In this document: in pieces, positions 24,566 to 52,244 of the stretch
How the letters are laid out: every line of letters begins with the position of its first letter
Position numbering within the stretch: position 1 is the first letter of the stretch
DNA from: an uncultured Actinomycetes bacterium
GTDB lineage: Bacteria; Actinomycetota; Thermoleophilia; RBG-16-64-13
Direction of reading: 5' to 3'
NCBI GenBank assembly: GCA_963706025.1
Contig: CAVPLM010000003.1
Coordinates: 384,001 to 448,000, forward strand
Length of the DNA: 64,000 nucleotides
The notes under the pieces: model-generated
Told to the model about the DNA's origin: nothing
The model's database searches: none
What the model saw: the letters and a program-made list of their open reading frames with translations, nothing else
Made by a program: the position numbers and the translations under genes

Positions 24566-24570
24566 CGGGT

Positions 24571-35821: not shown

Positions 35822-36228
35822 GCCACGTGGAGTTCGACAAGGACAAGTGCACGGACTGTCGCATGTGCATGCAGATCTGTTCGATGAACAAGCTGGGGCG
35901 GGTTACGCCGGCAGCGGCGTGCATCCAGATCGATAGGGAGCGCTCCAAGTACTACGGCGACATGGGCTGCCGGGTCTGCGACATGACCCACGAGCGGGCC
36001 TGCGTGGATGCCTGTCCGGTGGAGGCGCTGATCTACGAGCCGGATCTGGACGTGGTCCGGTTCGACGCCGAGTTGTGCACGGAATGCCTGGCCTGTCTGG
36101 ACGTCTGCCCGAATGTGGCGAGAGATGTGAGGTCCGGCCGGATAATGATCTGCGACCTTTGCGACGGCGACCCCTTGTGTGTCAAGTGGTGCCCCGAAGG
36201 CGCGCTCTCATGGGGGGCAGAGGCATGA
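35818..36228 (+). CDS. 4Fe-4S dicluster protein, small subunit for AOR-1
   Basis: CTDCRMCMQIC, CRVC...CVDACP, CTECLACLDVCP, CDLC...CVKWCP; overlaps the AOR start (ATGA). Confidence 0.9.
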   Translation: MSHVEFDKDKCTDCRMCMQICSMNKLGRVTPAAACIQIDRERSKYYGDMGCRVCDMTHERACVDACPVEALIYEPDLDVVRFDAELCTECLACLDVCPNVARDVRSGRIMICDLCDGDPLCVKWCPEGALSWGAEA

Positions 36229-38030
36229 AATACGGCGGATACATGGGCAAGTTCCTCACCGTCGATCTTTCGACCGGTGCCACCGGCACTTGGGACACCC
36301 CGGACGAAATGGCGGAGAAGTACCTTGGCGGCCGCGGGTTCATCGCCAAGATGCTCTACGATCGGCTGGCGCCGAAGATCGATCCCTTGGGACCCGAGAA
36401 CGTGATCATCTTCGCCACCGGCCCGGCGACGGGGACTCTGGTGCCCACCACAGGGCGGATCGCCATCGGCGTGAAGAGCCCACTCACCAACACCATCTCG
36501 GCAAGCTACCTGGGCGGCCACTTCGCCGGTCAGGTGAAGTACGCGGGCTACGACGGGATCATCATCACGGGGGTCTCGCCGACGCCGGTGACCCTGGTGA
36601 TCGATGACGACAGAGTCAGTCTGCGCGATGCCTCGGGCATCTGGGGCAAAGACACCAAAGAGTCGCAGGACATCCTGCGGGCGGAGTTGGGCGAAGGCTT
36701 CGAGATCGGCGCCATCGGCCCGGCGGGAGAGAATCTGGTGCCCATCGCCACCTTCATGCACGTGCAGAGAGCAGCCGGTCGTGGTGGGTCCGGAGCGGTG
36801 TTCGGCTCCAAGAAACTGAAGGCCGTGGCGGTGCGCGGCACGGGCGGCATCAGCGTGGGGACGCCGGCGAACGAGTTCATCCAGGGTTGCAAGGAGATGC
36901 ACGACATCATCATGGCCAACCCGGTGCGGCCCGCCTTCCGGTATGCCGGCACGACGGGCATGCTCCCGGTAATGAACGAGGTCGTGGGGTTGCCCTACAT
37001 GAACCATCAGGACGACAAGGCTCCGGATGTGAGCTTCATCCACAACGAGGAGATCTACAAGTACGTCAACAAGATCGAATCATGCGCCGGCTGCAATGTG
37101 TTCTGCGGCGCGGTGGTGGAGTTCGAGCGAGGTGGGAAGCGCTATCGCACCGAGCGCTTGGATCACGAGTCGACCTGGGCTCTCGGTCCCAACTGCGGGA
37201 TCGTCGATCTCCCGGCTCTCATGGAAGCCAACATGCTCTGCGACTATCTGGGCCTCGACACCATGAGCGCGGGCGGCGCGATCTCCTGGGCCATGGAGAT
37301 GACGCAGCGGGGTCTGCTCAGCAAAGAGGAGACGGACGGCCTGGACTTCAGTTTTGGCAACGCCGACGTCTTGGCCCCCGCCATCCGGAGCATGGCCGCC
37401 CGGCAGGGATTCGGCGATCTCCTGGCCCGAGGCAGCCGGGAAGCGGCCCGACTCGTCGGCCGGGGTGAGGAATACGCCATGCAGGTGAAGGGGCTGGAGA
37501 TGTCGGCCTATGCGCCCCGGGGCTTCACCGGCATGGGCTTGAGCTTTGCCACCACCAGCCGAGGAGCCGATCACAACAAGGCCTTCACGGTGGCGGCCGA
37601 GTTTCTAGGGGTGCTCGGGAACTACGACCGTTACGCGCTGGAAGGCAAGCCTCATCTGGTCAAGACCATGCAGGACAGCACCTGCATCATCGACTCGCTC
37701 ATCATGTGTATGTTCACCGTGGACCTAGGGATCGGCATCGATCTGTATGCCAAGTGCGCGGCTCTGCCCACGGGAATGAGGTTCACCGAAGAGGACGTCT
37801 ACACGGTGGGTGAGCGCATCAATACGGTCGAGCGCCTGTTCAACATGAACGAGGGGTTCACTCGCGCTGACGACAATCTTCCGCCGCGTTTTGCCAGAGA
37901 AGCGGCGCCGTCCGATCCGGGGCACCACACCTTGGACGTGACGGCCGTTATGGACGAGTACTACGCGGAGCGCGAGTACGACAGCGAGGGTGTGCCCACT
38001 CCGGCTCTGCTGGAGAGATTGGGTATCTAG
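36225..38030 (+). CDS. Aldehyde:ferredoxin oxidoreductase family protein 1 (tungstopterin)
   Basis: GYMGKFLTVDL, YLGGRG, KSPLT, IGPAGENLV, AAGRGGSGAVFGSKKLKA, CAGCNVFC, CDYLGLDTMS, RGADH. Confidence 0.93.
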   Translation: MKYGGYMGKFLTVDLSTGATGTWDTPDEMAEKYLGGRGFIAKMLYDRLAPKIDPLGPENVIIFATGPATGTLVPTTGRIAIGVKSPLTNTISASYLGGHFAGQVKYAGYDGIIITGVSPTPVTLVIDDDRVSLRDASGIWGKDTKESQDILRAELGEGFEIGAIGPAGENLVPIATFMHVQRAAGRGGSGAVFGSKKLKAVAVRGTGGISVGTPANEFIQGCKEMHDIIMANPVRPAFRYAGTTGMLPVMNEVVGLPYMNHQDDKAPDVSFIHNEEIYKYVNKIESCAGCNVFCGAVVEFERGGKRYRTERLDHESTWALGPNCGIVDLPALMEANMLCDYLGLDTMSAGGAISWAMEMTQRGLLSKEETDGLDFSFGNADVLAPAIRSMAARQGFGDLLARGSREAARLVGRGEEYAMQVKGLEMSAYAPRGFTGMGLSFATTSRGADHNKAFTVAAEFLGVLGNYDRYALEGKPHLVKTMQDSTCIIDSLIMCMFTVDLGIGIDLYAKCAALPTGMRFTEEDVYTVGERINTVERLFNMNEGFTRADDNLPPRFAREAAPSDPGHHTLDVTAVMDEYYAEREYDSEGVPTPALLERLGI

Positions 38031-38362: not shown

Positions 38363-39154
38363 ATGATCAGACAGGCGCGCAACAAAGGTATTCCGCTGTA
38401 CTACCAGGTGATGCGGAGCCTGAAGGAGGACATCCTTTCGGGACGCTGCGCCCCCGAGAAGCAGCTTCCTTCAGAGGCTGAGCTCACGAAGATCTTCAAC
38501 GTGAGCCGTGTGGTGGTGCGGCAGGCGCTCGAGATGCTGGAAGATGAGGGTCTGATCGTGCGAGTCCGGGGCAAGGGGACCTTCGTATCCAAAGACGCGG
38601 CGGCGGATGAAGCCCCCGTGCTCTCCGGCTATATCGAGGATTTCCTGCGCGTAGGCTGGGCCCTTGAGGTGAAGGTACTGGAGTTCGGGCTCGTCAAGGC
38701 CAGTCCCGATCTGGCTTCGGTCTTCAAAGTGGCGGAGGCCAGCGATCTCTTCCACGTGAAACGGCTCCGCCTGGTCGAGAGCCGGCCGTTCTCGGTCGTC
38801 GAGAACTACCTACCCTACGAGTTGGGAAGGCATATTCCCATGGCGCTTCTGGAAGACGAGCCGCTCATGACCCTGATCGAGAAGCATGTGGGGGTCTCCA
38901 TCGAATGGGCGTCCCAGGTCTTTCAGGCGGTCTCGGCCGACGCCGATCTGGCCGCTCTTCTGGATGTCGACGTCATGGCTCCCATCTTGAAGATGACGCT
39001 CACCGCATACACCGCGGAGAGCGAAGCGGTGAATTTCGCCAACGTCTACTACCGGTCCGATCGTTACAACCATCACGGCTACCTGCGCCGGCGGCGAACA
39101 AGCGACCATCTGACGTGGACCGCGGTCGAACGCATCCACGCGATGGGGGCTTGA
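38363..39154 (+). CDS. GntR-family regulator (HutC/UTRA subfamily)
   Basis: PLYYQV, LPSEAEL, VSRVVVRQAL, RGKGTFV; UTRA-type C-terminal domain ending YYRSDRY. Confidence 0.93.
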   Translation: MIRQARNKGIPLYYQVMRSLKEDILSGRCAPEKQLPSEAELTKIFNVSRVVVRQALEMLEDEGLIVRVRGKGTFVSKDAAADEAPVLSGYIEDFLRVGWALEVKVLEFGLVKASPDLASVFKVAEASDLFHVKRLRLVESRPFSVVENYLPYELGRHIPMALLEDEPLMTLIEKHVGVSIEWASQVFQAVSADADLAALLDVDVMAPILKMTLTAYTAESEAVNFANVYYRSDRYNHHGYLRRRRTSDHLTWTAVERIHAMGA

Positions 39155-39182: not shown

Positions 39183-40220
39183 ATGCGGGCTTTACGTCTC
39201 ATGGCGGCGGGGGATCTCAGGGTGGACGACGTACCCGATCCCCAGATCAAGAACGGCAAGAACGCCGTCCTCGCGGTCACCAAGACCGCCATATGCGGAG
39301 CCGATCTCCTGCCCTATTGGGGCTATGTGCCGGGTTTCGAATGGGGCACCACAATGGGGCACGAGTTCGTCGGCGTGGTTAAGGAGGTGGGCGCGGCGGT
39401 CGCTCAGGTCAAGCCCGGTGACCGGGTCGTGTGCTCCTCGATGACCTCGTGCGGTGTGTGCTGGGCCTGCCGCCGTGGGATGCAGCCACAGTGCGAGAAC
39501 CGGGCTCTTTTCGGCTTTTCCGGGGCGTACCCGCGGTTGGACGGAGGCCAGGCCGAGCAGGTGCTGGTCCCCAACGCCGACCGCGACCTGTGGCTACTCC
39601 CGCCTGAAGTGTCCGATGATGCCGGGGTGTTCGTGGCCGACATTCTCTCCACCGCCTTTCGTGGGGTCGAGCAGGCCGACGTCAAGATGGGCGATACGGT
39701 AGCGGTGGTCGGATGCGGTCCTGTCGGTCTCATGGCCATCCTGAGCGCACGGCTCATCGCGGGAATGGTCATCGCCGTGGACACGGTCCCAGCGCGGCTC
39801 GAACAGGCTCAGGCCATGGGGGCGGTGACCATCGATGCCTCCACTCAGGATGCCGTGGCCGCTGTGATGGACCTCACCGGCGGACGCGGTGCCAAGGCGG
39901 TCATCGAGTGCGCAGGCGGAGTCCCTGCACTCACGTCCGCCATGCAGATGGTGCGGGTGCGGGGCACCGTGAGCGTTATCGGCGCTCACTTCGAGCCCGA
40001 TTTCCCCTTGGACGCGGGAGGCATGTTCGCCAAGGAAACCACCTTGAGGTTCTCGATCGGAGCTCCAACCGACGATCGCGAGACAGTGCTCGACCTGCTC
40101 CGGCTGGGCAGGATCGATCCCACGCCCACGATCTCCCATCACATGAGTCTGGAAGATGCGCCCGAGGCCTACAAGCTTTTCGAGGCTCGGGAGGCCACCA
40201 AAGTGGTGTTGACGCCCTAG
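39183..40220 (+). CDS. Zn-dependent medium-chain alcohol dehydrogenase
   Basis: CGAD, GHEFVG, structural Zn site CGVCWAC...C, DILST, GCGPVG. Confidence 0.93.
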   Translation: MRALRLMAAGDLRVDDVPDPQIKNGKNAVLAVTKTAICGADLLPYWGYVPGFEWGTTMGHEFVGVVKEVGAAVAQVKPGDRVVCSSMTSCGVCWACRRGMQPQCENRALFGFSGAYPRLDGGQAEQVLVPNADRDLWLLPPEVSDDAGVFVADILSTAFRGVEQADVKMGDTVAVVGCGPVGLMAILSARLIAGMVIAVDTVPARLEQAQAMGAVTIDASTQDAVAAVMDLTGGRGAKAVIECAGGVPALTSAMQMVRVRGTVSVIGAHFEPDFPLDAGGMFAKETTLRFSIGAPTDDRETVLDLLRLGRIDPTPTISHHMSLEDAPEAYKLFEAREATKVVLTP

Positions 40221-40312: not shown

Positions 40313-41461
40313 ATGGCGAACGCGCAGTTCTTTTTCTTGGGTACGAGGCTGGTTCACGGTCTTGGTGCGGTCGCGGGCCTCGCGGGGCACGTGAAGGCCC
40401 TGGGCGGTACCAAGGTCTTCTTGTGCACGGACAAGGGTCTCAGCAGCGCGGGGGTGACCGAGAAGGTCGCCGGCGTCTTGGCGGCGGATGAGATCCCGTT
40501 CGTGACTTTCGACGACGTGCCGGAGGATCCCGGGGTCGCGGTGGTGGATGCGGGGGTTAAGCTTTTCCAAGAGGAGAAATGTGACCTGGTCGTGGCTCTC
40601 GGCGGCGGTAGCCCGATGTGCGCGGGCAAAGGCATCGCCCTGGTGGCCATGAACGGAGGCAAGCTGACCGACTACGAAGGATTCAACAAGGCAGCCAAGG
40701 CTCCGTATCCCGTGATAGCGATCCCCACGACCGCCGGGTCGGGCACCGAGGTGTCGAAGGTCAACATCCTCACCGATGAGGCCCGCAACTTCAAGATGTC
40801 CTTCCTGGACGAACGGACCTTCCCGAAGATCGCTCTTCTGGACGGGGAATTGATGGCGTCGCTTCCGGCAAGACCGGCGATCGTGGCCGGCATGGACGCA
40901 CTGGCCCACGCTCTGGATGCCCTGTGGTCCGTCAACTCCACCCAGATATCGGACAGCCTGGGGGTCGCGTCCGCGGCCACCATCTTCGAGACTCTGCCCC
41001 GAGCGGCGTTCACCGGCGACCTGGCAGCCAAGCAGAAGATGCTGGAGGCCAGCTCGATTGCCAACATCGCGCTGGGGACGGCACTCCCCGGCTTGGCTCA
41101 CGTACTGTCGCAGCCCCTGGGCAGGTATCACATGGCTCACGGCCTGGCCACGGGCATCATGCTTCCCTACACCATGGAGTTCAACCTTCCCGTGGCCGCG
41201 GCCAAGATGGCGCCCATCGCCCGGCTGCTCGGCGAGAGCGGGAGCGACCGGGAGCTGGCTGAGGTGTTGCTCGAGCGGCTGTGGGGACTCATGGGCGAGT
41301 TGGACTTCCCCACCTTCCTCGACCCCGAAGTGGTGAAGGAAGAAGACCTGCCCGTCTTGGTAGAACAGTGCACCAAGGTCGTCAACTACCGCCTGAACGT
41401 GAGGTTTGCTTCTCCCGCCGACCTCACCGGCCTGTATCTGTGTGCACTCGGAAAGGAGTGA
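40313..41461 (+). CDS. Iron-containing alcohol dehydrogenase
   Basis: ALGGGS, IPTTAGSGTEVS, GMDALAHA and GLAH...AHG metal ligands. Confidence 0.93.
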   Translation: MANAQFFFLGTRLVHGLGAVAGLAGHVKALGGTKVFLCTDKGLSSAGVTEKVAGVLAADEIPFVTFDDVPEDPGVAVVDAGVKLFQEEKCDLVVALGGGSPMCAGKGIALVAMNGGKLTDYEGFNKAAKAPYPVIAIPTTAGSGTEVSKVNILTDEARNFKMSFLDERTFPKIALLDGELMASLPARPAIVAGMDALAHALDALWSVNSTQISDSLGVASAATIFETLPRAAFTGDLAAKQKMLEASSIANIALGTALPGLAHVLSQPLGRYHMAHGLATGIMLPYTMEFNLPVAAAKMAPIARLLGESGSDRELAEVLLERLWGLMGELDFPTFLDPEVVKEEDLPVLVEQCTKVVNYRLNVRFASPADLTGLYLCALGKE

Positions 41462-41463: not shown

Positions 41464-43345
41464 ATGGAGGCGACACCTCGTGGCTCCTGGTGGGGCAGGA
41501 GTCCTTTTCGTCGATGTTGGTACCGGCGAGACGCGGGAGGAAGCCCTGGACTGGGACGCGGCCCGCGATTTCATCGGCGGGCGCGGCCTCGGAGCCTACT
41601 ACCTCTTCAAGCATCTGGTGCCGGGCACCGACCCCTTGAGCCCGGACAACCCGCTGATCTTCGCGGGCAGCCCCATGTCGGGCACCTCCTGCCCCGGCTC
41701 GGCCCGGGGCGCGGTGGTGACCAAGTCGCCCCAGAGCGGGATCTACACGTTCGCGATCACCGGGGGCGAGCTGGGACCGGCCCTCAAGCGGTCGGGCTAC
41801 GACGTGATCATCCTCACCGGCAAAGCCGAGAAGCCGGTCTACGTGGAAGTGGGTCCGGACGGCGCAGAACTACGTGACGCTTCTCATCTCTGGGGCTTGG
41901 ACACACAGTCGACCCAGGAACTCATCAAGAAAGAGCGACGGGGTGAAGACCTGGCCATCACCTGCATAGGGCAGGGAGGCGAGCGGCTGGTGCCTTACGC
42001 CTGCCTGATCAACGAGCGTCGCGCTCTTGGCCGGGGCGGTCCGGGTGCTGTCATGGGCTCGAAGAACGTGAAGGCCCTTGTGATCAAGAAAGACGGACCC
42101 GCGGCGCCGCTCGCCGATCCGGCGGCGTTTCGCGAGGCTGCGCGAAACGCCACCTTCCAGTGCCGCGACAACCCCTTTACCTCGGGGCCACTGAAGACGT
42201 TCGGGACGGTGAGCACTGTGGCAGTCACCGTCAACGGGGCCATCATGCCGGCGGACAACTGGCAGCGCATGACCACTGTCGAGGAGGGCAAGAACCTTTT
42301 CGGCAACGTGCTCCGCGAGAAGTTCTTGGTCAAAGACGTGGCCAGCGGCGAACCCTGCAACATCAAGTGCTCGAAGATCACGGTGGTGAAGGACGGACCC
42401 TTTGCCGGCGCCTCGACGGAAGGACCGGAGTACGAGACCATCTATGCTTTCGGCACCGGCTGCGGCATCTTCGACTTCGCGCCCATCATCGAAGCCGACA
42501 GGATGTGTGACCTCTATGGCATCGACACCATGTCGGTGGGAGTGACCATCATGTTCGCCATGGAATGCTACGAGAAGGGTCTCATCACCAAGGAAGACAC
42601 CGGCGGCATCGACCTGCGTTTCGGCAATGCCGAGGCCATGGTGAAGCTGGTGCACGACGCTGCTTTCCGGCAAGGCTTCGGCGAGAAGATCGCCAGGGGC
42701 TGCCGCGCCCTGGCTGCCGAGATCGGGCAAGGCAGCGAAGCCTTCGCCATGCACACCAAGGGCGTGGAGGTCGGCGGGTACGACCCGCGGGGCGCCAAGG
42801 GCATGGCCCTGGTCTACGGTTGCGGCCCCCGGGGCGGCTGCCACCACGCCGGTGGCTACACCGTCCAGTTGGAGTTCACCAATCCCGATATCGACCGCTA
42901 TGCCGACTCGGGCAAAGTCCCCATCGTCCTCATGACCCGTAACCGCAGGGCCGCGGCAGCGGACTCGGGCGGTACCTGCGCGTTCCTCACGGTGGGCATG
43001 GACAACGACGTCCTCGCCGGCATGCTCTCGGCAGCCACCGGCAATCCGATGACGGTGCAGGACATGATGCTGGCGGGCGAGCGGATCAGCATGCTGGAGC
43101 GGGTGCTCAACGTGCGCGAAGGTCTGCGGGCTGCAGACGACGTTATTCCCCGGCGGCTGATCGAGGAGAGCGTCCCCGACGGACCGACCGCGGGACACAT
43201 GGTCGATTGGGATCTCATGCATAGGGAGTTCTATCAAGCCAGCGAACTGGACCCGATAACGTCGCTCCCCACCAAGGATAAGCTTGCGAAGATGAACCTG
43301 ACCTGGGTGCTCGACGATCCTGTGGTCGCGGCCCTGGCCGGCTAA
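41464..43345 (+). CDS. Aldehyde:ferredoxin oxidoreductase family protein 2 (start 41464 with one extra base at ~41500, or GTG 41480)
   Basis: FIGGRGLG, TKSPQSG, GRGGPGAVMGSKNVKA, EGPEYET, CDLYGIDTMS, YDPRG, RGGCH. The AAGGAG RBS precedes ATG 41464. Confidence 0.92.
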
Positions 43346-43354: not shown

Positions 43355-44950
43355 GTGGCCTACTACCGCGACTTCAGGGAGTACGTCGCGAAGCTGGATG
43401 AGATGGGCCTGTTGCGGCGGGTCTCCACCCCCATCAACAAGGATACGGAGCTGATGCCGCTGGTCAGGCTCCAGTTCCGGGGACTACCGCCGGAACAGCG
43501 TACCGCCTGGGTGTTCGACAACATCCACGACGTGCTGGGCAAGAAGTACAACGGGTCTCTGGCCGTCTGCGTGCTCGGCGGAAATCGCGCGATCTATGCG
43601 GCAGCCCTGGGCTGCGAACCGGAAGAGATCAGCAAGAAGTGGGCCCAGGCCCACCAGAGCTGCATCGAGCCGAAGCTGGTCAAGGACGGGCCCTGCAAGG
43701 AAGAGATCCACGTGGGCGACAACCTGCTCGAGCACGACGGCATCCTGGAGTTCCCCCATCCCATATCGACGCCCGGCTTCGATCCCGCGCCCTTTTTTAC
43801 GTCGCCCTACTGGGTGACGAAGGACCCCGAGACCGGCCAGCGCAACATCGGCACGTACCGGGCCATGGTCAAAGGACCGGCCCGCACCGGGGTGATGGCC
43901 CACCAGTCGCAGCACATAGGTATCCACTTCCAGAAGATCCAGCGGCAGGGTGAGCATCGCCTGGATGCCGCGGTGGTCATCGGCTGCGCACCGGCCGTGG
44001 GTTTGTGCAGCGTGGCCAAGGTGCCGTACTCGGTGGACGAATACACGCTGGCGGGGGGTATCGCGGGCGAGCCCATCGAGCTGGTGAAGTGCGAGACTGT
44101 TGACCTGGAGGTGCCGGCGACGGCCGAGATCGTCATCGAAGGCTGGGTGGACACCACCTTCCGGGAGAAGGAAGCCCCCTTCGGCGAGTACACCGGGTAC
44201 ATGGGCGGCCGGGTGATCAACCCGGTCTTCAACGTGACCGCCATCACCCACCGTAAGAACCCCATCTATCAGGCGTTCCTCAGCCAGTTCCCTCCCTCAG
44301 AGAGCAGCCTCATCCGCAAGCTGGCCTATGACGCCGCCTATCTCAAATTCCTGCAGCACGACTGCAACATCCCAGGCGTGCTCGATGTGCAGTTGCATGA
44401 GTCCACCGGCAGTTACGGGCTGATGGTGATCCAACTCAATAAGACCCATCCGGCCCAGCCTTGGCAGGCTTTGAACGCGGCCGTGGCCTTCGATCCCACT
44501 ATCGGCAAGGTGATCGTGGCCGTGGACGACGACATCGATCCCAACGACGCCGACGCCGTGAACTGGGCCATGGCCTTCCGCATGCAGCCTCACCTCGACA
44601 CTCGGATCACCACCGGCAAGGCGTCCATCCTCGATCCCTCGTCGGCGCCGCCGGAGGCTTCGGTGGACGTGCAGCGCTTCCCGCCGCCGGTGGGGACGTC
44701 GTCTCTGCTCATCGATGCCACGAGGAAGTGGGGCTACCCGCCCACTTCGCTCCCGGCCAAGGAGTTCATGGAGGCGGCGCTCGAACGGTGGCAGGCGGAG
44801 GGCCTGCCGGCGCTCAGTCTCAAGAAACCATGGTTCGGCTACGAGCTGGGCCACTGGACCGACGAAGAACGCGAGGACGCCGCCAAAGCCATCCGCGGCG
44901 AGTACCTCGACACCGGCGAGAAGCTTCAACAACATCGCGAGGATCTGTGA
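43355..44950 (+). CDS. UbiD-family (prFMN-dependent) decarboxylase, catabolic paralogue
   Basis: RNIGTYR, VPATAEIVIEG, EAPFGEYTGY, FPPSES, VDDDIDP, LIDATRK. Confidence 0.92.
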   Translation: MAYYRDFREYVAKLDEMGLLRRVSTPINKDTELMPLVRLQFRGLPPEQRTAWVFDNIHDVLGKKYNGSLAVCVLGGNRAIYAAALGCEPEEISKKWAQAHQSCIEPKLVKDGPCKEEIHVGDNLLEHDGILEFPHPISTPGFDPAPFFTSPYWVTKDPETGQRNIGTYRAMVKGPARTGVMAHQSQHIGIHFQKIQRQGEHRLDAAVVIGCAPAVGLCSVAKVPYSVDEYTLAGGIAGEPIELVKCETVDLEVPATAEIVIEGWVDTTFREKEAPFGEYTGYMGGRVINPVFNVTAITHRKNPIYQAFLSQFPPSESSLIRKLAYDAAYLKFLQHDCNIPGVLDVQLHESTGSYGLMVIQLNKTHPAQPWQALNAAVAFDPTIGKVIVAVDDDIDPNDADAVNWAMAFRMQPHLDTRITTGKASILDPSSAPPEASVDVQRFPPPVGTSSLLIDATRKWGYPPTSLPAKEFMEAALERWQAEGLPALSLKKPWFGYELGHWTDEEREDAAKAIRGEYLDTGEKLQQHREDL

Positions 44951-44981: not shown

Positions 44982-46208
44982 ATGGCCGATCTATCCGTCG
45001 ATTTTGCGGGTCTTAAGCTCAAGAACCCGTTCATCATCGCGTCGTCCGAGCTGACCAACAAGATCGACAAGATCAAGATCGCCGAGGAGCATGGAGCCGC
45101 GGCCGTCAGCACCAAGCTGACCTTCTTGCAGATCCCTCTGTACGCCCGTCCCTATCACATCATCGAAAAGGAGGGCGCCTTCTACTCGCCTTCCGGTGAG
45201 CGCATGCGGGTAGATCAGACCCAGCGACTCGTCCAGCAGTGCAAGGAGCAGACCGACCTCAAGGTCATCGCCAACATGATGGGTCCGGGTGAGGATCTGG
45301 AGGGCTGGGCGAAGCTGGCCCGCGCTCTGGAAGAAGCCGGCGCCGACATGCTGGAGCTCAACATGTCCTGCCCGAACCTGGGTCTGATGGCAAAGCAGAT
45401 GGGTGTGGACGAGGAGCCGGAGCTGGGGGCGACACTCGGCAAGGACCCGGTGCTGGCCGGGAAAGTGACCAAGGCCGTCACCGACGCCGTGAAGATCCCT
45501 GTCATGCCCAAGATGACCCCTGAGGCCAACACCATGATGGTGTCGAAGTCGGTCCAGAAGAACGGCGCCGCGGCCGTCTCGGCCATCAACTGCCCACAGT
45601 CGCTGCCCCCGCTGGACATCGACCACGGTGGCCGGCCGTTCTATCCCTCCACCGGCAACCAGTCCTACGCCGGCCTCTGCGGTCCTTGGATCCGGCCGCT
45701 GGCCTATCGGCACGTGGCTCAGATGCGCACCGTCTGCCCCGACCTGCCCATCGCCGGCGGCGGCGGGCTGATGAACTGGCGCCATTCGGTAGAGATGATC
45801 ATGTACGGCGCCACCGTGCTCACTTACTGTTCGCTGCTCTACCTCAAGGGCTACAAGGCCTTCACCAAGATAGAGCCGGGCATGCACAAGTTCATGGACG
45901 AGCACGGCTACAAGACCCTGGCCGACATGCGGGGGATCGCGCTCGAGTACATCGTCACCCCCAAAGAGGTGGACTACATACCGATGCTCCCGGAGTTCGA
46001 CCTGGAGAAGTGCAACGGTTGCGGGCTGTGCGCCGCGCCGGGGCATTGTGAGTGCATCGAGATCGTGGACAAGAAGGCCGTGCTGGTGCAACCGAAGGAA
46101 TGCTATTCCTGCGCCGTCTGCTACTTCCTCTGCCCGAAAGACGCGATCACCATGAAGAACGCGCCGATCGAAGAGACCCGGGCAGGTGTGGCGCTGATGG
46201 AGCAGTGA
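44982..46208 (+). CDS. PreA-like (dihydropyrimidine/dihydroorotate dehydrogenase family) FMN reductase with C-terminal 2x[4Fe-4S] domain
   Basis: LSVDFAGLKLKNPFIIAS, ELNMSCPN (catalytic Cys), KMTP, GPWIRPLA; CNGCGLC and CYSCAVCYFLCP. Confidence 0.85.
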   Translation: MADLSVDFAGLKLKNPFIIASSELTNKIDKIKIAEEHGAAAVSTKLTFLQIPLYARPYHIIEKEGAFYSPSGERMRVDQTQRLVQQCKEQTDLKVIANMMGPGEDLEGWAKLARALEEAGADMLELNMSCPNLGLMAKQMGVDEEPELGATLGKDPVLAGKVTKAVTDAVKIPVMPKMTPEANTMMVSKSVQKNGAAAVSAINCPQSLPPLDIDHGGRPFYPSTGNQSYAGLCGPWIRPLAYRHVAQMRTVCPDLPIAGGGGLMNWRHSVEMIMYGATVLTYCSLLYLKGYKAFTKIEPGMHKFMDEHGYKTLADMRGIALEYIVTPKEVDYIPMLPEFDLEKCNGCGLCAAPGHCECIEIVDKKAVLVQPKECYSCAVCYFLCPKDAITMKNAPIEETRAGVALMEQ

Positions 46209-46233: not shown

Positions 46234-47127
46234 ATGAAGGCTTTTGAATACCTGCGTCCGGCGTCGATCGAGGAGGCGTGCGCGCTCCTGGCCGCCGGTG
46301 ATGGCTCGGTGAAAGTCCTGGCCGGCGGGACCGACCTGCTTGTGCAGATGAAGCAGGGGAAGCTGCAGCCGGAAGCGCTGATCAGCCTTAGGGACGTCCC
46401 CGGGCTTTCGTTCATCCGGCTGGATGGTGACGGGGGCCTTTCACTGGGGGCGGCCACTCCTCTGGGGTCAGTAGAGAGGTCCCCCGAGGTGATCAAGGGC
46501 TTCCCGGCCATTGCGGAGGCGGCCTCATGGATCGGGTCCGTGCAGGTGCGCAGCCGGGCCACCGTGGGAGGCAACCTGTGCAACGCCGCTCCCTCCGCCG
46601 ACATGGCCCCCATCTTGATCGCATTCGGAGCTGAGGCGGTCATTGCTGACGGAGGCGCCGAGCGCACGGTGCCGCTCGAAGACTTCTTCACCGGACCGGG
46701 CCGGACGGCGCTCGGGCCGGGTGAACTGCTCAAGGCCATCAAAGTACCACCGGCGCCCGCCAGGAGTTTTGGAAAATACGTCAAGGCCTACCGGTCCGCG
46801 ATGGACCTCGCCACGGTGGGGGTGGGGGCGCTGGTGGTCTTCGCGCCTGGTTCCGCGCGCTCCCCGGGTGTCGTGGAGGACGTTCGCTTGGTCCTCGGGG
46901 CCGTGGCGCCCACGCCCATCCGTGCGCGCGAAGCCGAGCGGATGCTGACCGGTCACACGCTGGATGAGGAGGTGATCGCGCAGGCGAGCCGCAAAGCCGC
47001 GGAGGAAGCCCGGCCGATCACCGACGTACGCGCCTCGGCCGAGTACCGGACCACCCTGGTGGAGGTCCTGTCTCGCAGGGCTCTTCTTGCGGCGTACTCC
47101 TGGGCCGGAAAAGGAGGACGAGAGTGA
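46234..47127 (+). CDS. Xanthine-dehydrogenase-family FAD subunit (CoxM type)
   Basis: FEYLRP, LAGGTDL, QVRSRATVGGNLCNAAPSAD, GAVAPTP, DVRASAEYR. Confidence 0.95.
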   Translation: MKAFEYLRPASIEEACALLAAGDGSVKVLAGGTDLLVQMKQGKLQPEALISLRDVPGLSFIRLDGDGGLSLGAATPLGSVERSPEVIKGFPAIAEAASWIGSVQVRSRATVGGNLCNAAPSADMAPILIAFGAEAVIADGGAERTVPLEDFFTGPGRTALGPGELLKAIKVPPAPARSFGKYVKAYRSAMDLATVGVGALVVFAPGSARSPGVVEDVRLVLGAVAPTPIRAREAERMLTGHTLDEEVIAQASRKAAEEARPITDVRASAEYRTTLVEVLSRRALLAAYSWAGKGGRE

Positions 47128-47606
47128 AGAGAGAGCTGCACATAACGGTCAACGGCGATGAGTACCATCTGTTCGTCGATGTGCGCCGCACCCTCCTCGA
47201 TGTGATCCGGGAAGACATCGGTCTGACCGGCACCAAGAACAGCTGCGGCGCCGGTGAATGCGGCGCCTGCACGGTATTGCTCGACAACGAGCCGGTCAAC
47301 TCCTGCCTGGTGCTCGCTCACGAGGCCGATGGGCAGGACGTGGTGACCATCGAGGGCCTTGCCCAGGGAGGCGTGCTTCATCCGGTCCAGGAGGCCTTTG
47401 TGGAGCAGGGCGCCATCCAGTGCGGCTTCTGCACGCCGGGCATGGTCATGTCCACGAAGGCCCTGCTCGACCGGAAGCCCAATCCGACCCGGGACGAGAT
47501 CCTCCACGGGCTGAAAGGGAACCTCTGCCGGTGCACAGGCTACGTGAAGATCATCGACGCCGTCGAAGCGGCGAGCTGCCTGCTCGGGGAAGGGGAGTCC
47601 GCATGA
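47124..47606 (+). CDS. Xanthine-dehydrogenase-family 2x[2Fe-2S] subunit (CoxS type)
   Basis: CGAGECGACTV, QCGFCTPG, GNLCRCTGY. Confidence 0.97.
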   Translation: MKRELHITVNGDEYHLFVDVRRTLLDVIREDIGLTGTKNSCGAGECGACTVLLDNEPVNSCLVLAHEADGQDVVTIEGLAQGGVLHPVQEAFVEQGAIQCGFCTPGMVMSTKALLDRKPNPTRDEILHGLKGNLCRCTGYVKIIDAVEAASCLLGEGESA

Positions 47607-49885
47607 ACACCTGCGTGATCGGGAAAGGACTTCCGCGCATCGACGCGGTCCCCAAGGTGACGGGTGAGGCGCAGTACACCGTCGATCTCAAGATGCCGGG
47701 GCTACTCATAGGCAAGATCCTGCGAAGCCCACATCCTCATGCCCTGATCAAGTCCATCGACACCTCGGCCGCGAAGGATCTCAAGGGGGTGCGGGCGGTC
47801 ATCACGGCCGCGGACGTCCCCGAGAACCTCTTCAGCTTCTATCAATGGCTGGCCGACAAGAACATCCTGTGTCGCAGCAGGGTCCGGTACGTGGGTGACG
47901 AGGTCGCCGCGGTGGCGGCTGTTGACGAGGATACGGCCGAAGAGGCGCTCTCGCTCATCAAGGTCGAGTACGAACCTCTTCCCGCGGTCTTCACCCTGGA
48001 GGAGGCAATGCAGCCCGGGGCGCCCCTGGTGCACGAGGACAAAGAGAGCAACGCGACTTGGAGCGTTCAACGCCTGTTCGGCGACCCCGACACGGCCTTC
48101 GCCGAGTGCGACTACGTGATCGAAGGCACGTATGTCACCCACCAGGTGGCGCACACCTGCTTCGAGGTATCCAACTGCATCGCCAAGTGGGACGCCAAAG
48201 ACCGTCTGACCATCTGGACGAACACCCAGGCGCCTCACACGCAGAGACAAGAGGTGGCTCGGATCCTGGGCATCCCCAAACGCAACGTGCGCGTCATCAG
48301 CTCTTACATGGGCGGGGGCTTCGGCTCCAAGCTGGTCATGGACATGAAGCTGCCCATCGCCGCCGTTTTGTCGAAGATGTGCGGGCGCCCGGTGCGCATC
48401 GTGAACACCAGGAGCGAGGAGTTCACTACCGCGAAGACCCGCTATCCCTACACCATGTATCTGAAGACCGGGGCCACCAAAGACGGCCGGATCGTGGCCC
48501 GGGAGCTCAAGGTTCTTGCGGACGCTGGTGCATATCACGACAAAGGGCCCGCCACGATCAACTTCGCCAGCATGATGTTCGGCACCCTCTACAACGTGGC
48601 CAACATGCGCTTCGACGGTCAACTGGTATACACCAACAAGGAGATGGGCACTGCCTTTCGCGGCTTCGGGAATCCGCAGGTTTCCTTCGCCACCGAGACA
48701 CAACTCGACGAACTGGCCGAGAAGATGGGCATGGACCCGCTGGAGCTCCGGCTCAAGAACTCCAACCAGGCCGGTGTGGAGACCGCCTGCGGCGCCGAGG
48801 TCTGCGGGTGCGCGATGACCGAATGCATAGTGGCCGCGGCCGAAGGCATCGAGTGGGACAAGAAGAGGGGCAAGAAGGCGAACGGCAGGCTGCGCGGCGT
48901 GGGCATGGCCAACATGGTCCATACCGGTGGCGGCGGACGCTTCTACGGATACAACTCGGCGGAAGCCTTCGTGAAGCTCTCGGATGAGGGGACGGTGACC
49001 CTCATCACTTCCGCCCTCGACATGGGCCAGGGAGCGCATACGGCCATGGCGATGATCGTGGCCGAAGAGCTGGGAGTCAATCTGGGCGACATCAACGTGC
49101 TGTCCCACGACACCGACCTCACGCCCTACGACCTGGGCTCCTGGGGGAGCCGGGCCACGTTCATGAACGGCAACGCCGTTCTTGCGGCAGCCCGGGACGC
49201 GAGGAACGCGGTGGGAGAGGCCGCGGCCGAGATGTTGGAGGCCGACGCGAAGGACATTATCGTGGAGGGAGGCAAGGTCTGGGTCAGAGGCTCGGAAGAG
49301 AAGCACGACCTGGCCGAGATCGTCGAGCACGCGGTGAACGCCCATGGCTCTCCGCTCTCCGGGACGGGCAAGTTCGTCGACTCTCTGCCCGCGGGGTATA
49401 CGATCCCCACCGCCTTCATCAAGAACATCCCCTGCTTCTCGTTCGGCACCCAGGCGGCCGAAGTGGAGATAGACCCGGAAACCGGTCAGGTGAAAGTCCT
49501 CAAGGTGGTGGCCGCCCACGAGACGGGTACCACCATCAACCAGACCATGGTCGAGGGGCAGATCGAGGGCAGCGTGGCTCAAGGTGTGGGCTACGCTCTG
49601 GTGGAGCAGTTGATCCGCGATGAGAGCGGTAAGATCCTCAACGACAGCTTCCTCGATTACAAGATCGCCAACATCGGAGACATACCGGAAATCGTAGCCA
49701 TCGGGGTGGAGAGTCTGGGCACGAACGGCCCCTACGGCGCGAAGGGCATCGGAGAGCCGGGTCTGGTCCCGACTGCCCCGGCGATAGCCAACGCGATCTT
49801 CGACGCGATCGGGGTCCGGTTCTACGAATTGCCCATCACGCCTGACAAGGTACTGAGAGCACTGGAAGCGAAGAGATCGAAGTAG
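47603..49885 (+). CDS. Xanthine-dehydrogenase-family molybdopterin large subunit
   Basis: KVTGEAQY, GGGFGSK, AFRGFGNPQ, DMGQG, EGQIEG, GAKGIGEP. Lacks the CO-dehydrogenase AYxCSFR loop. Confidence 0.95.
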   Translation: MNTCVIGKGLPRIDAVPKVTGEAQYTVDLKMPGLLIGKILRSPHPHALIKSIDTSAAKDLKGVRAVITAADVPENLFSFYQWLADKNILCRSRVRYVGDEVAAVAAVDEDTAEEALSLIKVEYEPLPAVFTLEEAMQPGAPLVHEDKESNATWSVQRLFGDPDTAFAECDYVIEGTYVTHQVAHTCFEVSNCIAKWDAKDRLTIWTNTQAPHTQRQEVARILGIPKRNVRVISSYMGGGFGSKLVMDMKLPIAAVLSKMCGRPVRIVNTRSEEFTTAKTRYPYTMYLKTGATKDGRIVARELKVLADAGAYHDKGPATINFASMMFGTLYNVANMRFDGQLVYTNKEMGTAFRGFGNPQVSFATETQLDELAEKMGMDPLELRLKNSNQAGVETACGAEVCGCAMTECIVAAAEGIEWDKKRGKKANGRLRGVGMANMVHTGGGGRFYGYNSAEAFVKLSDEGTVTLITSALDMGQGAHTAMAMIVAEELGVNLGDINVLSHDTDLTPYDLGSWGSRATFMNGNAVLAAARDARNAVGEAAAEMLEADAKDIIVEGGKVWVRGSEEKHDLAEIVEHAVNAHGSPLSGTGKFVDSLPAGYTIPTAFIKNIPCFSFGTQAAEVEIDPETGQVKVLKVVAAHETGTTINQTMVEGQIEGSVAQGVGYALVEQLIRDESGKILNDSFLDYKIANIGDIPEIVAIGVESLGTNGPYGAKGIGEPGLVPTAPAIANAIFDAIGVRFYELPITPDKVLRALEAKRSK

Positions 49886-49906
49886 TCACGTGCAGTAGTC
49901 ACGTGC
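49881..49906 (+). repeat. 13-bp tandem duplication at the junction of the Mo subunit and yqeC
   Basis: AGTAGTCACGTGC twice; each copy contains TAG and GTG. Confidence 0.9.
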
Positions 49907-51411
49907 AGGCCACCGCGCACGAAACTCTCTCCGGCGCCCTTGGTCTGGGGCGCCGGGAGTTGGTGGCGCTGGTTGGCGGGGGCGGCAAGACCGGCGCGCT
50001 GCGCCTTCTTGCCCGCGAGTTGACCGCGCCTGGGCGCCGCGTGGTGGCAACGACGACGACGGCCATGTTCCTCCGAGAGTTGAGCGAGGCCGGTCCGGTG
50101 GTCATGGGCGCGACCCTGCCCGACTTGCTGGCGGGCGTCGAAGAGGCTCTCGCGCAGGGAGCGGCGCAGGGAGCGGCGGTGGGGGCCGCGCGCATGCCTG
50201 TCGACCAGGACAAGGTGATGGGCCTTCCTGCCGACTGGGTGGATCGGCTCTGGGCGAAGGGCGCGGAAGGGCGCGACCCCTTGGAGATGGTCTGCGGAGC
50301 GGCTGCTCCAACGGTCGACTTTCCCGCCCCACTTGACTACCTGCTCGTCGAGGCCGACGGGAGCCGGGGAAGGCCGCTCAAGGCCTTCGGGGCTCACGAG
50401 CCCCAGGTTCCTGACGCGACGACCACCGTCGTGCAGGTCGCCGGATTGGATGCCCTCGGTGCCCCGCTGACCGAAGAGTACGTGCATCGCGCCGGTTTGC
50501 TTGCCTCCGCGTTGCGGGTGCCGGTCGGCTCGAAGATAACGGCCCCTGTCTTCGCGGGCTGTCTGCGCGAGCAGGTGCAGGTGATCAGGCGCCGCTGGCC
50601 GGATGTCCGGGTCGTCACCCTGCTGAACAAGGCCGAAAGGCCGGAGGATGAAGCCGCAGGACTGGAGTTGGCCGGGGAGTTGCTGGGGGCGCCTGTCGGC
50701 AATGGCGGGGGCGATGCCCGAGGCTACAGGCCGGACTCCGTCGTAGTGGGCAGTCTTCAGGAGAGGCGCTTCGTGCGCGCCCGAAAGAGCGTGTCGGTCG
50801 CCGCGATCGTGCTGGCTGCAGGCCTCGGGACCCGGATGGGAGGCCAGAAGGTACTGTTTCCCCTGGGGGAACGTTCATTGGTGCAATGGGTAGTGGATGC
50901 AGCCCTGGGCTCGGGGGCTGCCGAGACGATCTTGGTGGTGGGGCATGAGGCGGGATCGGTGGCCGACGCGGTGAAAGACCGGCCGGTGAACGTGGTGGTC
51001 AACCCTGATCACGCCGAGGGCATGAGTACTTCTCTTCAGGCCGGGGTGCGGGCCGTCCGGCCGGACTGCGACGCGGCCGTCTTCATGCTTGGGGATCAGC
51101 CGTTCGTCACGTCGGCGCTCGTGGATGGGCTGATCGAGCGGTTCGCCGAGAACGAAGCCTGGGTGGTCAGACCCGTTCTTGGGAACCGGCCTATCCACCC
51201 GGTGCTCATGAGCGCGGCGCTCTTCCCGGAGATCTTGAGTCAGCGCGGCGACATCGGCGGCCGCGAGATCGCCCGGCGTCATCCGGAGCGGGTCAGCCTG
51301 GTGCCTGTGGACGACAGTCGGTTAGACTTGGACGTCGATACGGGTGAGGACTACGAGGAGGCCCTTCGGATCCGGGGCTGCTCGGCGGAGCGAGTGGCAG
51401 GAGACCAATGA
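49903..51411 (+). CDS. yqeC: YqeC (Se-dependent Mo-hydroxylase accessory protein) fused to a MocA-like cytidylyltransferase
   Basis: VGGGGKT, TTTT and LVEADGSRGRPLKA...HEP (YqeC); LAAGLGTRMGGQK, GMSTSL, LGDQP, GDIGGR and DVDT (MocA). Confidence 0.88.
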   Translation: MQATAHETLSGALGLGRRELVALVGGGGKTGALRLLARELTAPGRRVVATTTTAMFLRELSEAGPVVMGATLPDLLAGVEEALAQGAAQGAAVGAARMPVDQDKVMGLPADWVDRLWAKGAEGRDPLEMVCGAAAPTVDFPAPLDYLLVEADGSRGRPLKAFGAHEPQVPDATTTVVQVAGLDALGAPLTEEYVHRAGLLASALRVPVGSKITAPVFAGCLREQVQVIRRRWPDVRVVTLLNKAERPEDEAAGLELAGELLGAPVGNGGGDARGYRPDSVVVGSLQERRFVRARKSVSVAAIVLAAGLGTRMGGQKVLFPLGERSLVQWVVDAALGSGAAETILVVGHEAGSVADAVKDRPVNVVVNPDHAEGMSTSLQAGVRAVRPDCDAAVFMLGDQPFVTSALVDGLIERFAENEAWVVRPVLGNRPIHPVLMSAALFPEILSQRGDIGGREIARRHPERVSLVPVDDSRLDLDVDTGEDYEEALRIRGCSAERVAGDQ

Positions 51412-52244
51412 GGAGACAGGAGCTATACGCGCAGATGGCCGACCTCACCGGACGAGGGGTGCCGTTCGTCCTTGCCACCATCATCGGGACTTCAGGCTCC
51501 AGCCCGCGCGGCGTGGGGACGAAGATGCTCGTCATGGGAGACGGCAAGACCGTCGAGACGATCGGCGGAGGAGCACTGGAGAAGCAGGTCATAGCCGATG
51601 CTCTGACCTGTCTTGTCTCCGGGGCGTCCCGCATCGAGCGTTACGAACTGCGCGCGCAGGGAGATCACGCTCTGGGTACTTTGTGCGGAGGGGAGGCTAC
51701 GGTCTTCCTGGAGGCGCACGTGCCGGATCGCACTCTTCTCATCGTGGGAGCCGGCCACGTGGGCCGTAGTCTCTGCCGGTGCGCCAAGCTGCTCGACTAT
51801 CAGGTGGTGGTGCTGGACCCCCGGGAAGACATGGTGACTCCGGAACGCTATCCCGAGGCCGACCGGTTGATCTGCGGCGATCCGGCGCAGACCGCGGACC
51901 TGTTCCCCATCTCGTCGACGACCCACGTGGTCATCGTTACCCACGGCCATCAGCTCGACAAAGACGCCCTGCTTTCGGTGATCGGTTCTCCCGCCGCCTA
52001 CATCGGGATGATGGGGAGCGCCACCAAAGTGCGGGCCGTTCTCGCTCAGCTCCGGGAGGCCGGGGTCGATCCAGGACTGCTCGACCGGGTTCATGCTCCC
52101 ATAGGTCTGGATATCGGGGCTGAGACCCCCGCCGAGCTGGCGCTTTGCATCATGGCCGAGATAGTGGCCGATGGCTACGGCAGGCTGAGCGGACTGAGAA
52201 ACGCAGCCGCTGAGACTGGAGTCCGGGAGGGGTGTGGGGAGTGA
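51408..52244 (+). CDS. xdhC: XdhC/CoxI-family molybdenum-cofactor insertion chaperone
   Basis: GSSPRGVGTKM, TIGGGALE, CGG, GAGHVG, YIGMMGS, PIGLDIGAETPAELA. Confidence 0.92.
   Translation: MRRQELYAQMADLTGRGVPFVLATIIGTSGSSPRGVGTKMLVMGDGKTVETIGGGALEKQVIADALTCLVSGASRIERYELRAQGDHALGTLCGGEATVFLEAHVPDRTLLIVGAGHVGRSLCRCAKLLDYQVVVLDPREDMVTPERYPEADRLICGDPAQTADLFPISSTTHVVIVTHGHQLDKDALLSVIGSPAAYIGMMGSATKVRAVLAQLREAGVDPGLLDRVHAPIGLDIGAETPAELALCIMAEIVADGYGRLSGLRNAAAETGVREGCGE

Follow-up and report, generated by a model that had tools for sequence, protein, structure and literature searches.

Which acid does an enzyme of the UbiD family, dependent on prenylated flavin mononucleotide (prFMN), decarboxylate when its gene lies in a cluster that also carries markers of vitamin B6 catabolism? 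The question is raised by a stretch of 64,000 nucleotides (assembly GCA_963706025.1, contig CAVPLM010000003.1, positions 384,001 to 448,000; hereafter the window) from an uncultured bacterium of the class Thermoleophilia, which encodes a UbiD-family protein at 43355-44950 on the plus strand. To our knowledge, B6 degradation is known from aerobes only, where it relies on oxidases and a ring-opening oxygenase, and a literature search that left most subscription journals outside its reach found neither an anaerobic B6 route nor a UbiD acting on B6-derived acids. By sequence comparison, the enzyme appears to serve an oxygen-independent B6 catabolic cluster and to act on a pyridine acid derived from the vitamin, a reading to which we assign a probability of roughly 0.58. 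An earlier note on this DNA had proposed a hydroxypyridine-carboxylate decarboxylase, and genomic context and comparison support that proposal. The most likely substrate, judged from context and held with somewhat less assurance than the reading itself, is 3-hydroxy-2-methylpyridine-4,5-dicarboxylate; within B6 metabolism, the enzyme might instead decarboxylate 4-pyridoxate directly, or a 6-hydroxylated intermediate. The enzyme represents a new subfamily, with a probable new substrate class, of a well-known enzyme family, and the cluster around it is possibly an undescribed oxygen-independent route of B6 degradation.

The UbiD gene and the vitamin B6 markers around it

The gene is a genuine member of the UbiD-type decarboxylase family. 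Its reading frame runs intact and exactly from 43355 to 44950, starts with GTG and encodes 531 residues, which match PF01977 (UbiD, 210.6 bits, E 1.8e-62), PF20696 (UbiD_C, 77.7 bits) and PF20695 (UbiD_N, 24.3 bits, exactly equal to the cut-off). The only NCBIfam model passed is the generic TIGR00148, 'UbiD family decarboxylase' (255.7 against 244.85 bits); the protein fails the MqnL-type model TIGR03701 (mena_SCO4490, 213.8 against 495.9), the VdcC model NF041204 (210.7 against 650) and the ubiquinone UbiD model PRK10922 (159.3 against 788), as well as the NCBIfam models for BagN/FevL and for both phenylphosphate carboxylase subunits. No small partner subunit of the VdcB/VdcD type and no UbiX gene adjoins it. 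R169, E273 and E278 do not vary among the 24 aligned clade members; they fall in motifs that align with the furandicarboxylate decarboxylase HmfF and by sequence match the E(D)-R-E catalytic network of the family, a residue-by-residue mapping that is in part our assumption. A conserved E(D)-R-E network is described for UbiD enzymes in an excerpt of PMC8988006. A conserved PWxGYxLGxW motif marks the C-terminal extension of about 80 residues that the whole clade has in common; in an AlphaFold model based on 24 clade members (mean pLDDT 86.1), this extension forms helices at residues 469-481, 503-513 and 517-525.

The earlier note had placed this second UbiD of the window between an aldehyde:ferredoxin oxidoreductase (AOR2) and a reductase, and had set it clearly apart from the menaquinone enzyme MqnL encoded at 21208. 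The positions agree, as the gene starts 10 bases past AOR2 and ends 31 bases ahead of a PreA-like reductase gene (coordinates in Table 1), and the distinction holds as well: the two UbiDs share 27% identity, and only the product of 21208-22716 passes the MqnL model (637.8 against 495.9 bits). The gene at 43355-44950 is also the sole decarboxylase-type gene of the cluster.

Of the B6 markers in the window, the strongest taken singly is a 4-pyridoxolactonase gene that lies about 1 kb from an ABC importer operon, in divergent orientation, and exceeds the curated cut-off of its model; on the strength of this match, the cluster is predicted to contain B6-specific catabolic enzymes. The substrate-binding protein of the importer has NF047927, 'putative B6 ABC transporter substrate-binding protein', as its sole NCBIfam match (356.1 bits), and the importer is accompanied by a class V aminotransferase resembling pyridoxamine-pyruvate aminotransferase (PPAT). 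This aminotransferase keeps the PPAT residues E68, T146, D171, K197 and R345, whereas Y95 is replaced by phenylalanine and R336 falls in a gap. It scores 432.9 bits against NF046070, with the next family at 210, and 365.5 bits against the structures 2Z9U-2Z9X, with the next match at 150.6; according to an excerpt of PMC6698932, these structures are those of the Mesorhizobium loti PPAT. Another PPAT-like type, about 35% identical, occupies the same slot in locus L013 and similar loci within an otherwise syntenic cluster, and it too has the PPAT model as its best match (351.9 bits).

A plasmid of Rhizobium daejeonense carries a comparable arrangement, in which an annotated PPAT (44.5% identical to that of the window) stands beside a GntR regulator and a homologous importer (42% identity for the binding protein, 46-54% for the ATPase and permeases), with lactonase, SDR and GMC genes nearby and a gene annotated '2,5-dihydroxypyridine 5,6-dioxygenase' whose product is 26.6% identical to the NicX-fold protein of the window. 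The surroundings of a PPAT-like gene on a Haematobacter plasmid were uninformative. Purine or pyrimidine catabolism, which the BMP-type transporter, the xanthine dehydrogenase (XDH)-family enzyme and the PreA-like reductase had suggested, was dropped as a candidate because the binding protein, the aminotransferase and the lactonase match B6 models.

The same association recurs outside the phylum. A homologue of the NicX-fold protein was found in four of 351 sampled Chloroflexota genomes, with useful flanking sequence on three contigs (L125, L126 and L127, from genomes G608, G694 and G776), and on all three it is 52-66% identical to that of the window and accompanied by B6 markers. L125 holds an AOR gene, the NicX-like gene (66%), a second AOR gene, an alanine dehydrogenase gene, a pyridoxolactonase-like gene (291 against 325 bits) and a B6-type importer. 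L126 encodes a protein like FHMPC dehydrogenase (429.2 against 500 bits, next family 213), the Mo and 2Fe-2S subunits of an XDH, a class II aldolase/adducin-fold protein, the NicX-like protein (55%), a GntR regulator and a B6-type binding protein (384.6 against 400). L127 combines the NicX-like gene with XDH genes, a zinc-type alcohol dehydrogenase (ADH) gene and a lactonase homologue (45% identity). A second phylum thus shows NicX-like, XDH and AOR genes in the company of B6-specific markers. An oxidoreductase of the LLM class is also encoded in these variant clusters.

Distribution of the cluster and alternative substrates

Thermoleophilia genomes and metagenomes are the sources of the close relatives of the UbiD (72-93% identity), and all carriers found are metagenome-assembled genomes. 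Across a synteny set of 31 loci whose UbiD is at least 69% identical, the PreA-like gene is present in 27; three of the four misses have contig ends less than 120 bases from the UbiD gene, and L035 shows no PreA-like gene within 10 kb downstream. AOR2 occurs in 23 of the 31, with five of the misses having no upstream sequence and L015 carrying AOR2 pieces under the coverage threshold, separated from the UbiD by about 4.8 kb without cluster matches. Eighteen loci extend 10 kb upstream of the UbiD, and 16 of these carry a PPAT-like gene. Orthologues of the UbiD occur in 12 of 251 sampled genomes of the class, and in every one of the 12 the same contig carries a PPAT-like gene at a distance of 4.5-13 kb; a wider sample, of 301 genomes from the phylum, yielded only the window's own genome and one paralogue at 42% identity and was uninformative. 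In a quick LG+G4 tree of 90 clade members with MqnL as outgroup, from which one short-contig row with an interrupted reading frame was left out, the 20 UbiDs that lie in such a cluster group together as a single clade (SH-aLRT 100, one label change), which, since all 20 come from one class, represents a coherent subfamily rather than separate events. Fixed in this B6-context subclade, and rare outside it, are 27 positions, including Q184, R270 and Y354/G355; the last pair aligns at R331 of HmfF.

Several observations weigh against a tie between the UbiD and vitamin B6. The aminotransferase and the binding protein stay below the cut-offs of their models (600 bits for NF046070 and an equivalog cut-off of 400 for NF047927), no UbiD is found in any Chloroflexota cluster with B6 markers, and the aldolase-fold protein of L126 matches 2Z7B, the solved aerobic B6 decarboxylase, at rank 6 of 16 only (67.5 bits). 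The synteny counts are not independent, as all loci with B6 context come from one class, and the stretches fetched for L009, L011, L012 and L036 reach well past the PreA-like gene without XDH genes. Seventeen of the 29 genomes that bear a PPAT-like gene in the 251-genome class sample have no UbiD orthologue, and in six of these 17, the UbiD-less relatives examined, the module of importer and PPAT is conserved, without other catabolic genes except in L116 and L118, where a gene of the XDH-FAD type and one like NicX (49-55% identity) lie near the module, again without a UbiD. In the other four (L115, L117, L119 and L120), the PPAT module is followed directly by orthologues, at 61-87% identity, of the Hdr-like genes that end the cluster in the window, so that the block of about 21 kb from AOR1 to the M20 deacylase gene (window positions about 35900-56900) is missing between them. 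This block looks like an inserted or deleted catabolic island; because it is missing in four of six relatives, the UbiD appears to belong to a separable insert, part of its link to B6 rests on adjacency, and the module of importer and PPAT by itself could serve B6 salvage. Finally, a search for shared 12-mers (at most one mismatch) and for 6+6 palindromes in front of three putative transcription units (importer, AOR1 and GntR) brought out no convincing common operator.

The wider clade is likewise of little help. The next tier of UbiD relatives, at 49-62% identity, comes from Chloroflexota, Desulfobacterales, Pelotomaculum, Tectomicrobia and Rhodocyclaceae, and the names given to UbiD relatives in their sources are generic ('UbiD family decarboxylase' or similar) apart from one 'Phenolic acid decarboxylase subunit C'. 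None of the AOR2-, PreA- or PPAT-type neighbours and no conserved operon was found around the UbiD in three genome loci or in the 68 metagenome loci where it is 49-60% identical; the most frequent neighbour family is seen at 10 of 62 loci, and the neighbours include TctABC and ABC transporters, CoA ligases, acyl-CoA dehydrogenases, additional UbiD paralogues and XDH-type genes. With the relatives at 49-60% placed in such varied contexts, membership of the wider clade gives no clue to the substrate, which is a further point against the B6 assignment. One of these loci, L023 on a Rhodocyclaceae contig (3457-15836), has a 58%-identical UbiD that is flanked on one side by a benzoyl-CoA-reductase-like four-gene set and an aldehyde dehydrogenase and on the other by a CoA ligase and two acyl-CoA dehydrogenases, and is by its gene content an uncharacterised anaerobic aromatic-acid module.

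Some of these observations also favour the best of the competing explanations, namely that the UbiD together with the block of AOR, ADH and XDH genes acts on some other (hetero)aromatic alcohol, aldehyde or acid, such as the pyrimidine moiety of thiamine or a plant-derived pyridine or phenolic compound, and that the block landed beside a module for B6 uptake and salvage. The module stands without the block in the four relatives, the transcription units share no operator, the UbiD relatives are found in diverse aromatic-acid settings, and the PreA-like enzyme resembles pyrimidine reductases. We nevertheless consider this explanation unlikely, at about one chance in four, because NicX-like, XDH and AOR genes co-occur with B6 markers in an independent phylum (3/3 contigs) as well as on the Rhizobium plasmid, two ADHs and two AORs suit the two hydroxymethyl groups of pyridoxine, and the window holds a lactonase at equivalog level.

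A furan substrate has much less in its favour. The best match of the UbiD among solved structures is HmfF of Pelotomaculum thermopropionicum (6H6X 195.6 bits, 6H6V 186.3), ahead of E. coli UbiD (141 bits), VdcC (117) and AroY (114) among 40 distinct sequences matched, and the predicted model superposes best on the same enzyme (target-normalised TM 0.80-0.86, root-mean-square deviation 2.1-2.7, 33-34% identity). If the protein were an HmfF orthologue, the cluster would degrade furfural or 5-hydroxymethylfurfural (HMF), with the AORs and ADHs oxidising HMF and the Mo enzyme serving as furoyl-CoA dehydrogenase; HMF oxidation likewise requires an alcohol step and aldehyde steps, and HmfABC is an XDH-family enzyme. 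Such an orthology is nonetheless very improbable. The positions of HmfF R304 and R331, which presumably bind the second carboxylate, align to tyrosines in the UbiD, and H297 (index 296 in the 6H6X chain) aligns to a serine within the clade-invariant motif SQFPPSESS. According to excerpts, 6H6V is HmfF (PMC8988006) and H297 is key to furan specificity (PMC7976604). Among the scanned open reading frames (ORFs) of the cluster, no AMP-binding/CoA ligase gene and no crotonase-type/hydratase gene of the kind that neighbours hmf genes was found, and the adjacent markers indicate B6 and pyridine. The furan hypothesis was dropped for these reasons. With regard to the B6 assignment, it is of some weight in its favour that HmfF, the closest solved enzyme, also decarboxylates a heteroaromatic dicarboxylate. 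The earlier note had taken membership in a UbiD clade with a known, unrelated substrate, together with a lack of turnover of B6-derived acids, as a sign that its proposal was wrong; placed against characterised UbiDs by score rankings versus PDB and NCBIfam, the protein does not group with such a clade, HmfF being closest at 34% identity.

That the enzyme is mainly a carboxylase activating a hydroxypyridine ring with CO2, or is catalytically inactive, is the least probable explanation of all: UbiD reactions are reversible and UbiD-type carboxylases have been proposed in some anaerobes (excerpt of PMC8988006), phenol, benzene and naphthalene being the compounds for which such activation is proposed, and on chemical grounds the B6 ring offers a free C6 position para to the 3-hydroxyl, yet the cluster has neither an ATP-dependent or phosphorylating partner nor an extra UbiD-like subunit, the gene directly upstream would make a carboxylate, which suits decarboxylation, and the catalytic residues are intact.

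A candidate oxygen-independent route

If the UbiD acts on a B6-derived acid, it would take the place of an unrelated enzyme. The earlier note had stated that the aerobic pathway uses a class II aldolase fold for this step, which agrees with an excerpt of PMC11841055, where HMPDdc (Mlr6791, PDB 2Z7B) is described as a Mn(II) enzyme of that fold. Its further suggestion of a non-orthologous replacement gains support from two sides. In L126, the pair formed by the FHMPC-dehydrogenase-like and the class II aldolase-fold genes fills the slot of AOR2 and UbiD in the window, the dehydrogenase step being the one that yields the 4,5-dicarboxylate; the aldolase-fold protein falls by sequence in a branch that contains decarboxylases, although its relation to the M. 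loti enzyme is not one of clear orthology. The genome of the window, which is 92% complete, contains no close relative of the aerobic decarboxylase, its best class II aldolase-fold protein resembling a fuculose-phosphate aldolase (102.7 bits) and matching 2Z7B at rank 25 of 38 (60 bits); for FHMPC dehydrogenase, the best match in the genome scores 223 against 500 bits, so none comes near the cut-off. On account of its UbiD fold, the enzyme can be only a functional analogue of the EC 4.1.1.51 enzyme and not a member of its family.

The cofactor would have to be supplied from elsewhere in the genome. The earlier note had remarked that the window contains no ubiX and had asked for one outside it: none lies within the 64 kb, and the sole match above cut-off in the genome (C3:46494-47036 on the minus strand, TIGR00421, 243 against 108.9 bits) is separated from the window (C3:384001-448000) by about 337 kb of the same contig. 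The genome has five matches to the UbiD family. At a locus outside the window (L007, G000:C3:858327-861938), a second lactonase paralogue (pyridoxolactonase model 276 against 325 bits) and the start of a VdcC-like UbiD paralogue (VdcC model 397.9 against 650; 29% identical to the 531-residue UbiD) share 10 bases, and a class III aminotransferase gene follows; this locus may be a second, related module for lactone and acid decarboxylation.

The protein proposed for ring opening was recognised by profile and fold searches, as a plain phmmer search against the PDB gave no match. Its AlphaFold model (pLDDT 88) has its closest fold in NicX, an enzyme that cleaves the pyridine ring (7CN3, TMq 0.80, E 7e-24), ahead of M29 aminopeptidases (TMq 0.61-0.68). 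NicX H318 and D320 align to its invariant H308 and D310, and H265 to an invariant glutamate, as in M29 peptidases; H265, H318 and D320 are the numbers that we take to be those of the NicX ligands. The family is wide, with 921 matches at E<=1e-5 that include proteins at 60-70% identity in Anaerolineae/Chloroflexi and Thermodesulfobacteriota. The genome showed neither a COX1/heme-copper oxidase nor cytochrome bd subunit I, an absence that, at 92% completeness, is not proven. The protein could be a hydrolytic rather than an oxygenolytic pyridine-ring opener; given the glutamate in the NicX fold and the lack of oxidases, ring opening may be either oxygenolytic or hydrolytic after reduction by the PreA-like enzyme.

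Read as one pathway, the cluster would operate as follows. B6 vitamers would enter through the BMP-type ABC importer; pyridoxamine would be converted to pyridoxal by the PPAT-like aminotransferase, pyridoxine would be oxidised by an ADH, and pyridoxal would yield 4-pyridoxate, either via the lactone and 4-pyridoxolactonase or directly through an AOR. The 5'-hydroxymethyl group would be oxidised by the second ADH and then by AOR2, which would turn 5-formyl-3-hydroxy-2-methylpyridine-4-carboxylate into 3-hydroxy-2-methylpyridine-4,5-dicarboxylate. From this acid the UbiD, with prFMN made by way of the ubiX elsewhere on the contig, would take off one carboxyl, most likely that at C4, leaving 3-hydroxy-2-methylpyridine-5-carboxylate. 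The C4 carboxylate is the one removed in the aerobic B6 pathway, and it would be electronically activated because it is ortho to the 3-hydroxyl. For UbiDs acting on (hetero)aromatics, electrophilic-substitution or cycloaddition chemistry has been proposed (excerpt of PMC7976604). A Mo hydroxylase with selenium-type maturation genes would then hydroxylate the ring beside the nitrogen, at C6, giving a 2,5-dihydroxypyridine pattern that suits the NicX-fold enzyme; the PreA-like enzyme would reduce the ring and the NicX-fold enzyme would open it. We infer the substrate, the order of the steps and all events after the decarboxylation.

In its fullest form, the proposal is that an anaerobic member of Thermoleophilia possesses an entirely oxygen-independent B6 route, in which every O2-dependent or flavin-oxidase step has been replaced and the UbiD performs the decarboxylation. 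Tungsten-type AORs and ADHs would handle the side chains, the UbiD would do the work of the class II aldolase-fold decarboxylase, and the ring-opening oxygenase would give way to a Mo hydroxylase with selenium-type maturation genes, a reductase like dihydropyrimidine dehydrogenase (DPD) and a NicX-fold enzyme whose glutamate ligand is of the aminopeptidase type. This comprehensive version is tentative, and we rate it at somewhat less than even odds. If true, it would provide the first UbiD shown on a pyridine dicarboxylate. Should the B6 reading hold, it would extend the UbiD/prFMN family to hydroxypyridine dicarboxylates, with a bearing on biocatalytic (de)carboxylation of pyridines, and offer a clean case of non-orthologous replacement, UbiD versus class II aldolase fold, side by side in related clusters; it would also hint at how anoxic soils and sediments recycle a vitamin.

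Cluster features and comparison with known systems

The features of the cluster and of the neighbouring menaquinone set are collected in Table 1.

Table 1. Genes of the putative B6 cluster and of the adjoining menaquinone set, in window coordinates, with the basis of each assignment
Feature	Position	Strand	Basis
Rex-like regulator	20550-21197		menaquinone set
MqnL	21208-22716		menaquinone set
UbiA-type prenyltransferase	22726-23583		menaquinone set
UbiE-type methyltransferase	23580-24470		menaquinone set
MqnC	26733-27788		menaquinone set; 497 vs 428
4-pyridoxolactonase	27800-28642	-	NF047925 380.1 bits vs cut-off 325; next family 119
Conserved ORF without family, divergent from importer operon	28737-29615	-	no Pfam/NCBIfam match; homologue in L118
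BMP/PnrA-type ABC substrate-binding protein, B6-type	29604-30803	+	Pfam Bmp; NF047927
ABC ATPase and two permeases	30835-32484, 32481-33665, 33662-34588	+	Pfam ABC_tran, BPD_transp_2
PPAT-like class V aminotransferase	34637-35821	+	PDB 2Z9U-2Z9X, NF046070
Aldehyde:ferredoxin oxidoreductase 1 (AOR1, tungsten AOR family)	36075-38030	+	Pfam AFOR_N 250.4, AFOR_C 393 bits
GntR/HutC-type regulator with UTRA domain	38363-39154	+	Pfam GntR, UTRA
Zinc-type alcohol dehydrogenase	39183-40220	+	Pfam ADH_N, ADH_zinc_N; no NCBIfam model above cut-off
Iron-type alcohol dehydrogenase	40313-41461	+	Pfam Fe-ADH, ADH_Fe_C
Aldehyde:ferredoxin oxidoreductase 2 (AOR2)	41480-43345	+	Pfam AFOR_N 231.4, AFOR_C 378.6 bits
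UbiD-family (prFMN) decarboxylase	43355-44950	+	Pfam, NCBIfam, PDB match, predicted fold
PreA/dihydropyrimidine-dehydrogenase-like flavin and Fe-S reductase	44982-46208	+	Pfam DHO_dh and 4Fe-4S
XDH-family Mo hydroxylase: FAD, 2Fe-2S and Mo subunits	46234-47127, 47124-47606, ~47606-49885	+	Pfam
Cofactor maturation: YqeC-MocA fusion, XdhC, YqeB	49903-51411, 51408-52244, 52232-53095	+	TIGR03172, Pfam, TIGR03309
NicX-fold/M29-superfamily metalloenzyme, candidate ring-opening step	53114-54118	+	AlphaFold model, fold match
M20 ArgE/DapE-type deacylase	54910-56457	-	Pfam Peptidase_M20; acetylornithine deacetylase 148 bits, below cut-off

The ORF between lactonase and importer encodes 292 residues and is probably a real gene of the module, as a 38%-identical homologue in L118 holds the same divergent position by the binding-protein gene. 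The PreA-like reductase scores 232.3 bits against the PreA model (cut-off 335) and 107 bits against pig DPD, and the best NCBIfam models for the XDH-family enzyme, 4-hydroxybenzoyl-CoA reductase alpha (670 against 995) and XdhA (620 against 780), also remain below cut-off. YqeB (TIGR03309, 353.7 against 220) and YqeC (TIGR03172, 128.8 against 73) exceed the cut-offs of models named for selenium-dependent molybdenum cofactor biosynthesis, and the XDH-type enzyme is therefore marked as having selenium-type maturation genes; the only selenium-type Mo enzyme known to us to act on a pyridine is nicotinate dehydrogenase. Whether the M20 gene belongs to the cluster is uncertain, since it occurs in only nine of the 31 related loci.

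Directly after the cluster, 57031-61478 (plus strand) encodes an HdrC-like protein, an unknown protein and an HdrA-like Fe-S flavoprotein, which could re-oxidise the ferredoxin reduced by the AORs and which are also conserved in relatives that have no catabolic cluster. On the other side, 20550-27788 holds a gene set for the futalosine route to menaquinone. In it an MqnE-like ORF (24571-25701) matches positions 1-225 of a 351-position model and the following ORF (25717-26736) has no NCBIfam match, so that the MqnE gene may be split or frameshifted.

Among known enzymes, HmfF, the 2,5-furandicarboxylate decarboxylase of P. thermopropionicum (6H6V/6H6X) and Cupriavidus basilensis, shares the UbiD fold with the enzyme of the window and, according to an excerpt of PMC7976604, likewise has a heteroaromatic dicarboxylate as substrate; it differs in overall sequence (34% identity), in the furan histidine that is a serine here, in the conserved C-terminal addition of about 80 residues in the window UbiD, and in gene context, which here is free of hmf-type CoA genes. 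HMPDdc, the M. loti 3-hydroxy-2-methylpyridine-4,5-dicarboxylate 4-decarboxylase, catalyses the same reaction as is proposed for the UbiD, at the equivalent place after oxidation of the 5'-carbon, but does so with Mn(II) and a class II aldolase fold rather than prFMN and the UbiD fold, and the relation would be one of analogy, not homology.

At the level of the whole pathway, the aerobic B6 pathway I of M. loti and the R. daejeonense cluster have PPAT (44.5%), a BMP-type importer (42-54%) and a lactonase in common with the window, and the R. daejeonense cluster further shares a NicX-type gene and a GntR regulator. In place of the oxidase, SDR and oxygenase steps of the aerobic pathway, the window offers ADHs, tungsten-type AORs, the UbiD, a Mo hydroxylase with selenium-type maturation genes and a PreA-like reductase. 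The nicotinate fermentation of Eubacterium barkeri proceeds through a selenium-dependent Mo hydroxylase acting beside the nitrogen, a ring reductase and a hydrolase that opens the ring, and so follows on a pyridine carboxylate the same O2-free logic as is proposed for the window; it has neither a UbiD step nor side-chain oxidation, and the likeness proposed to the window is one of logic.

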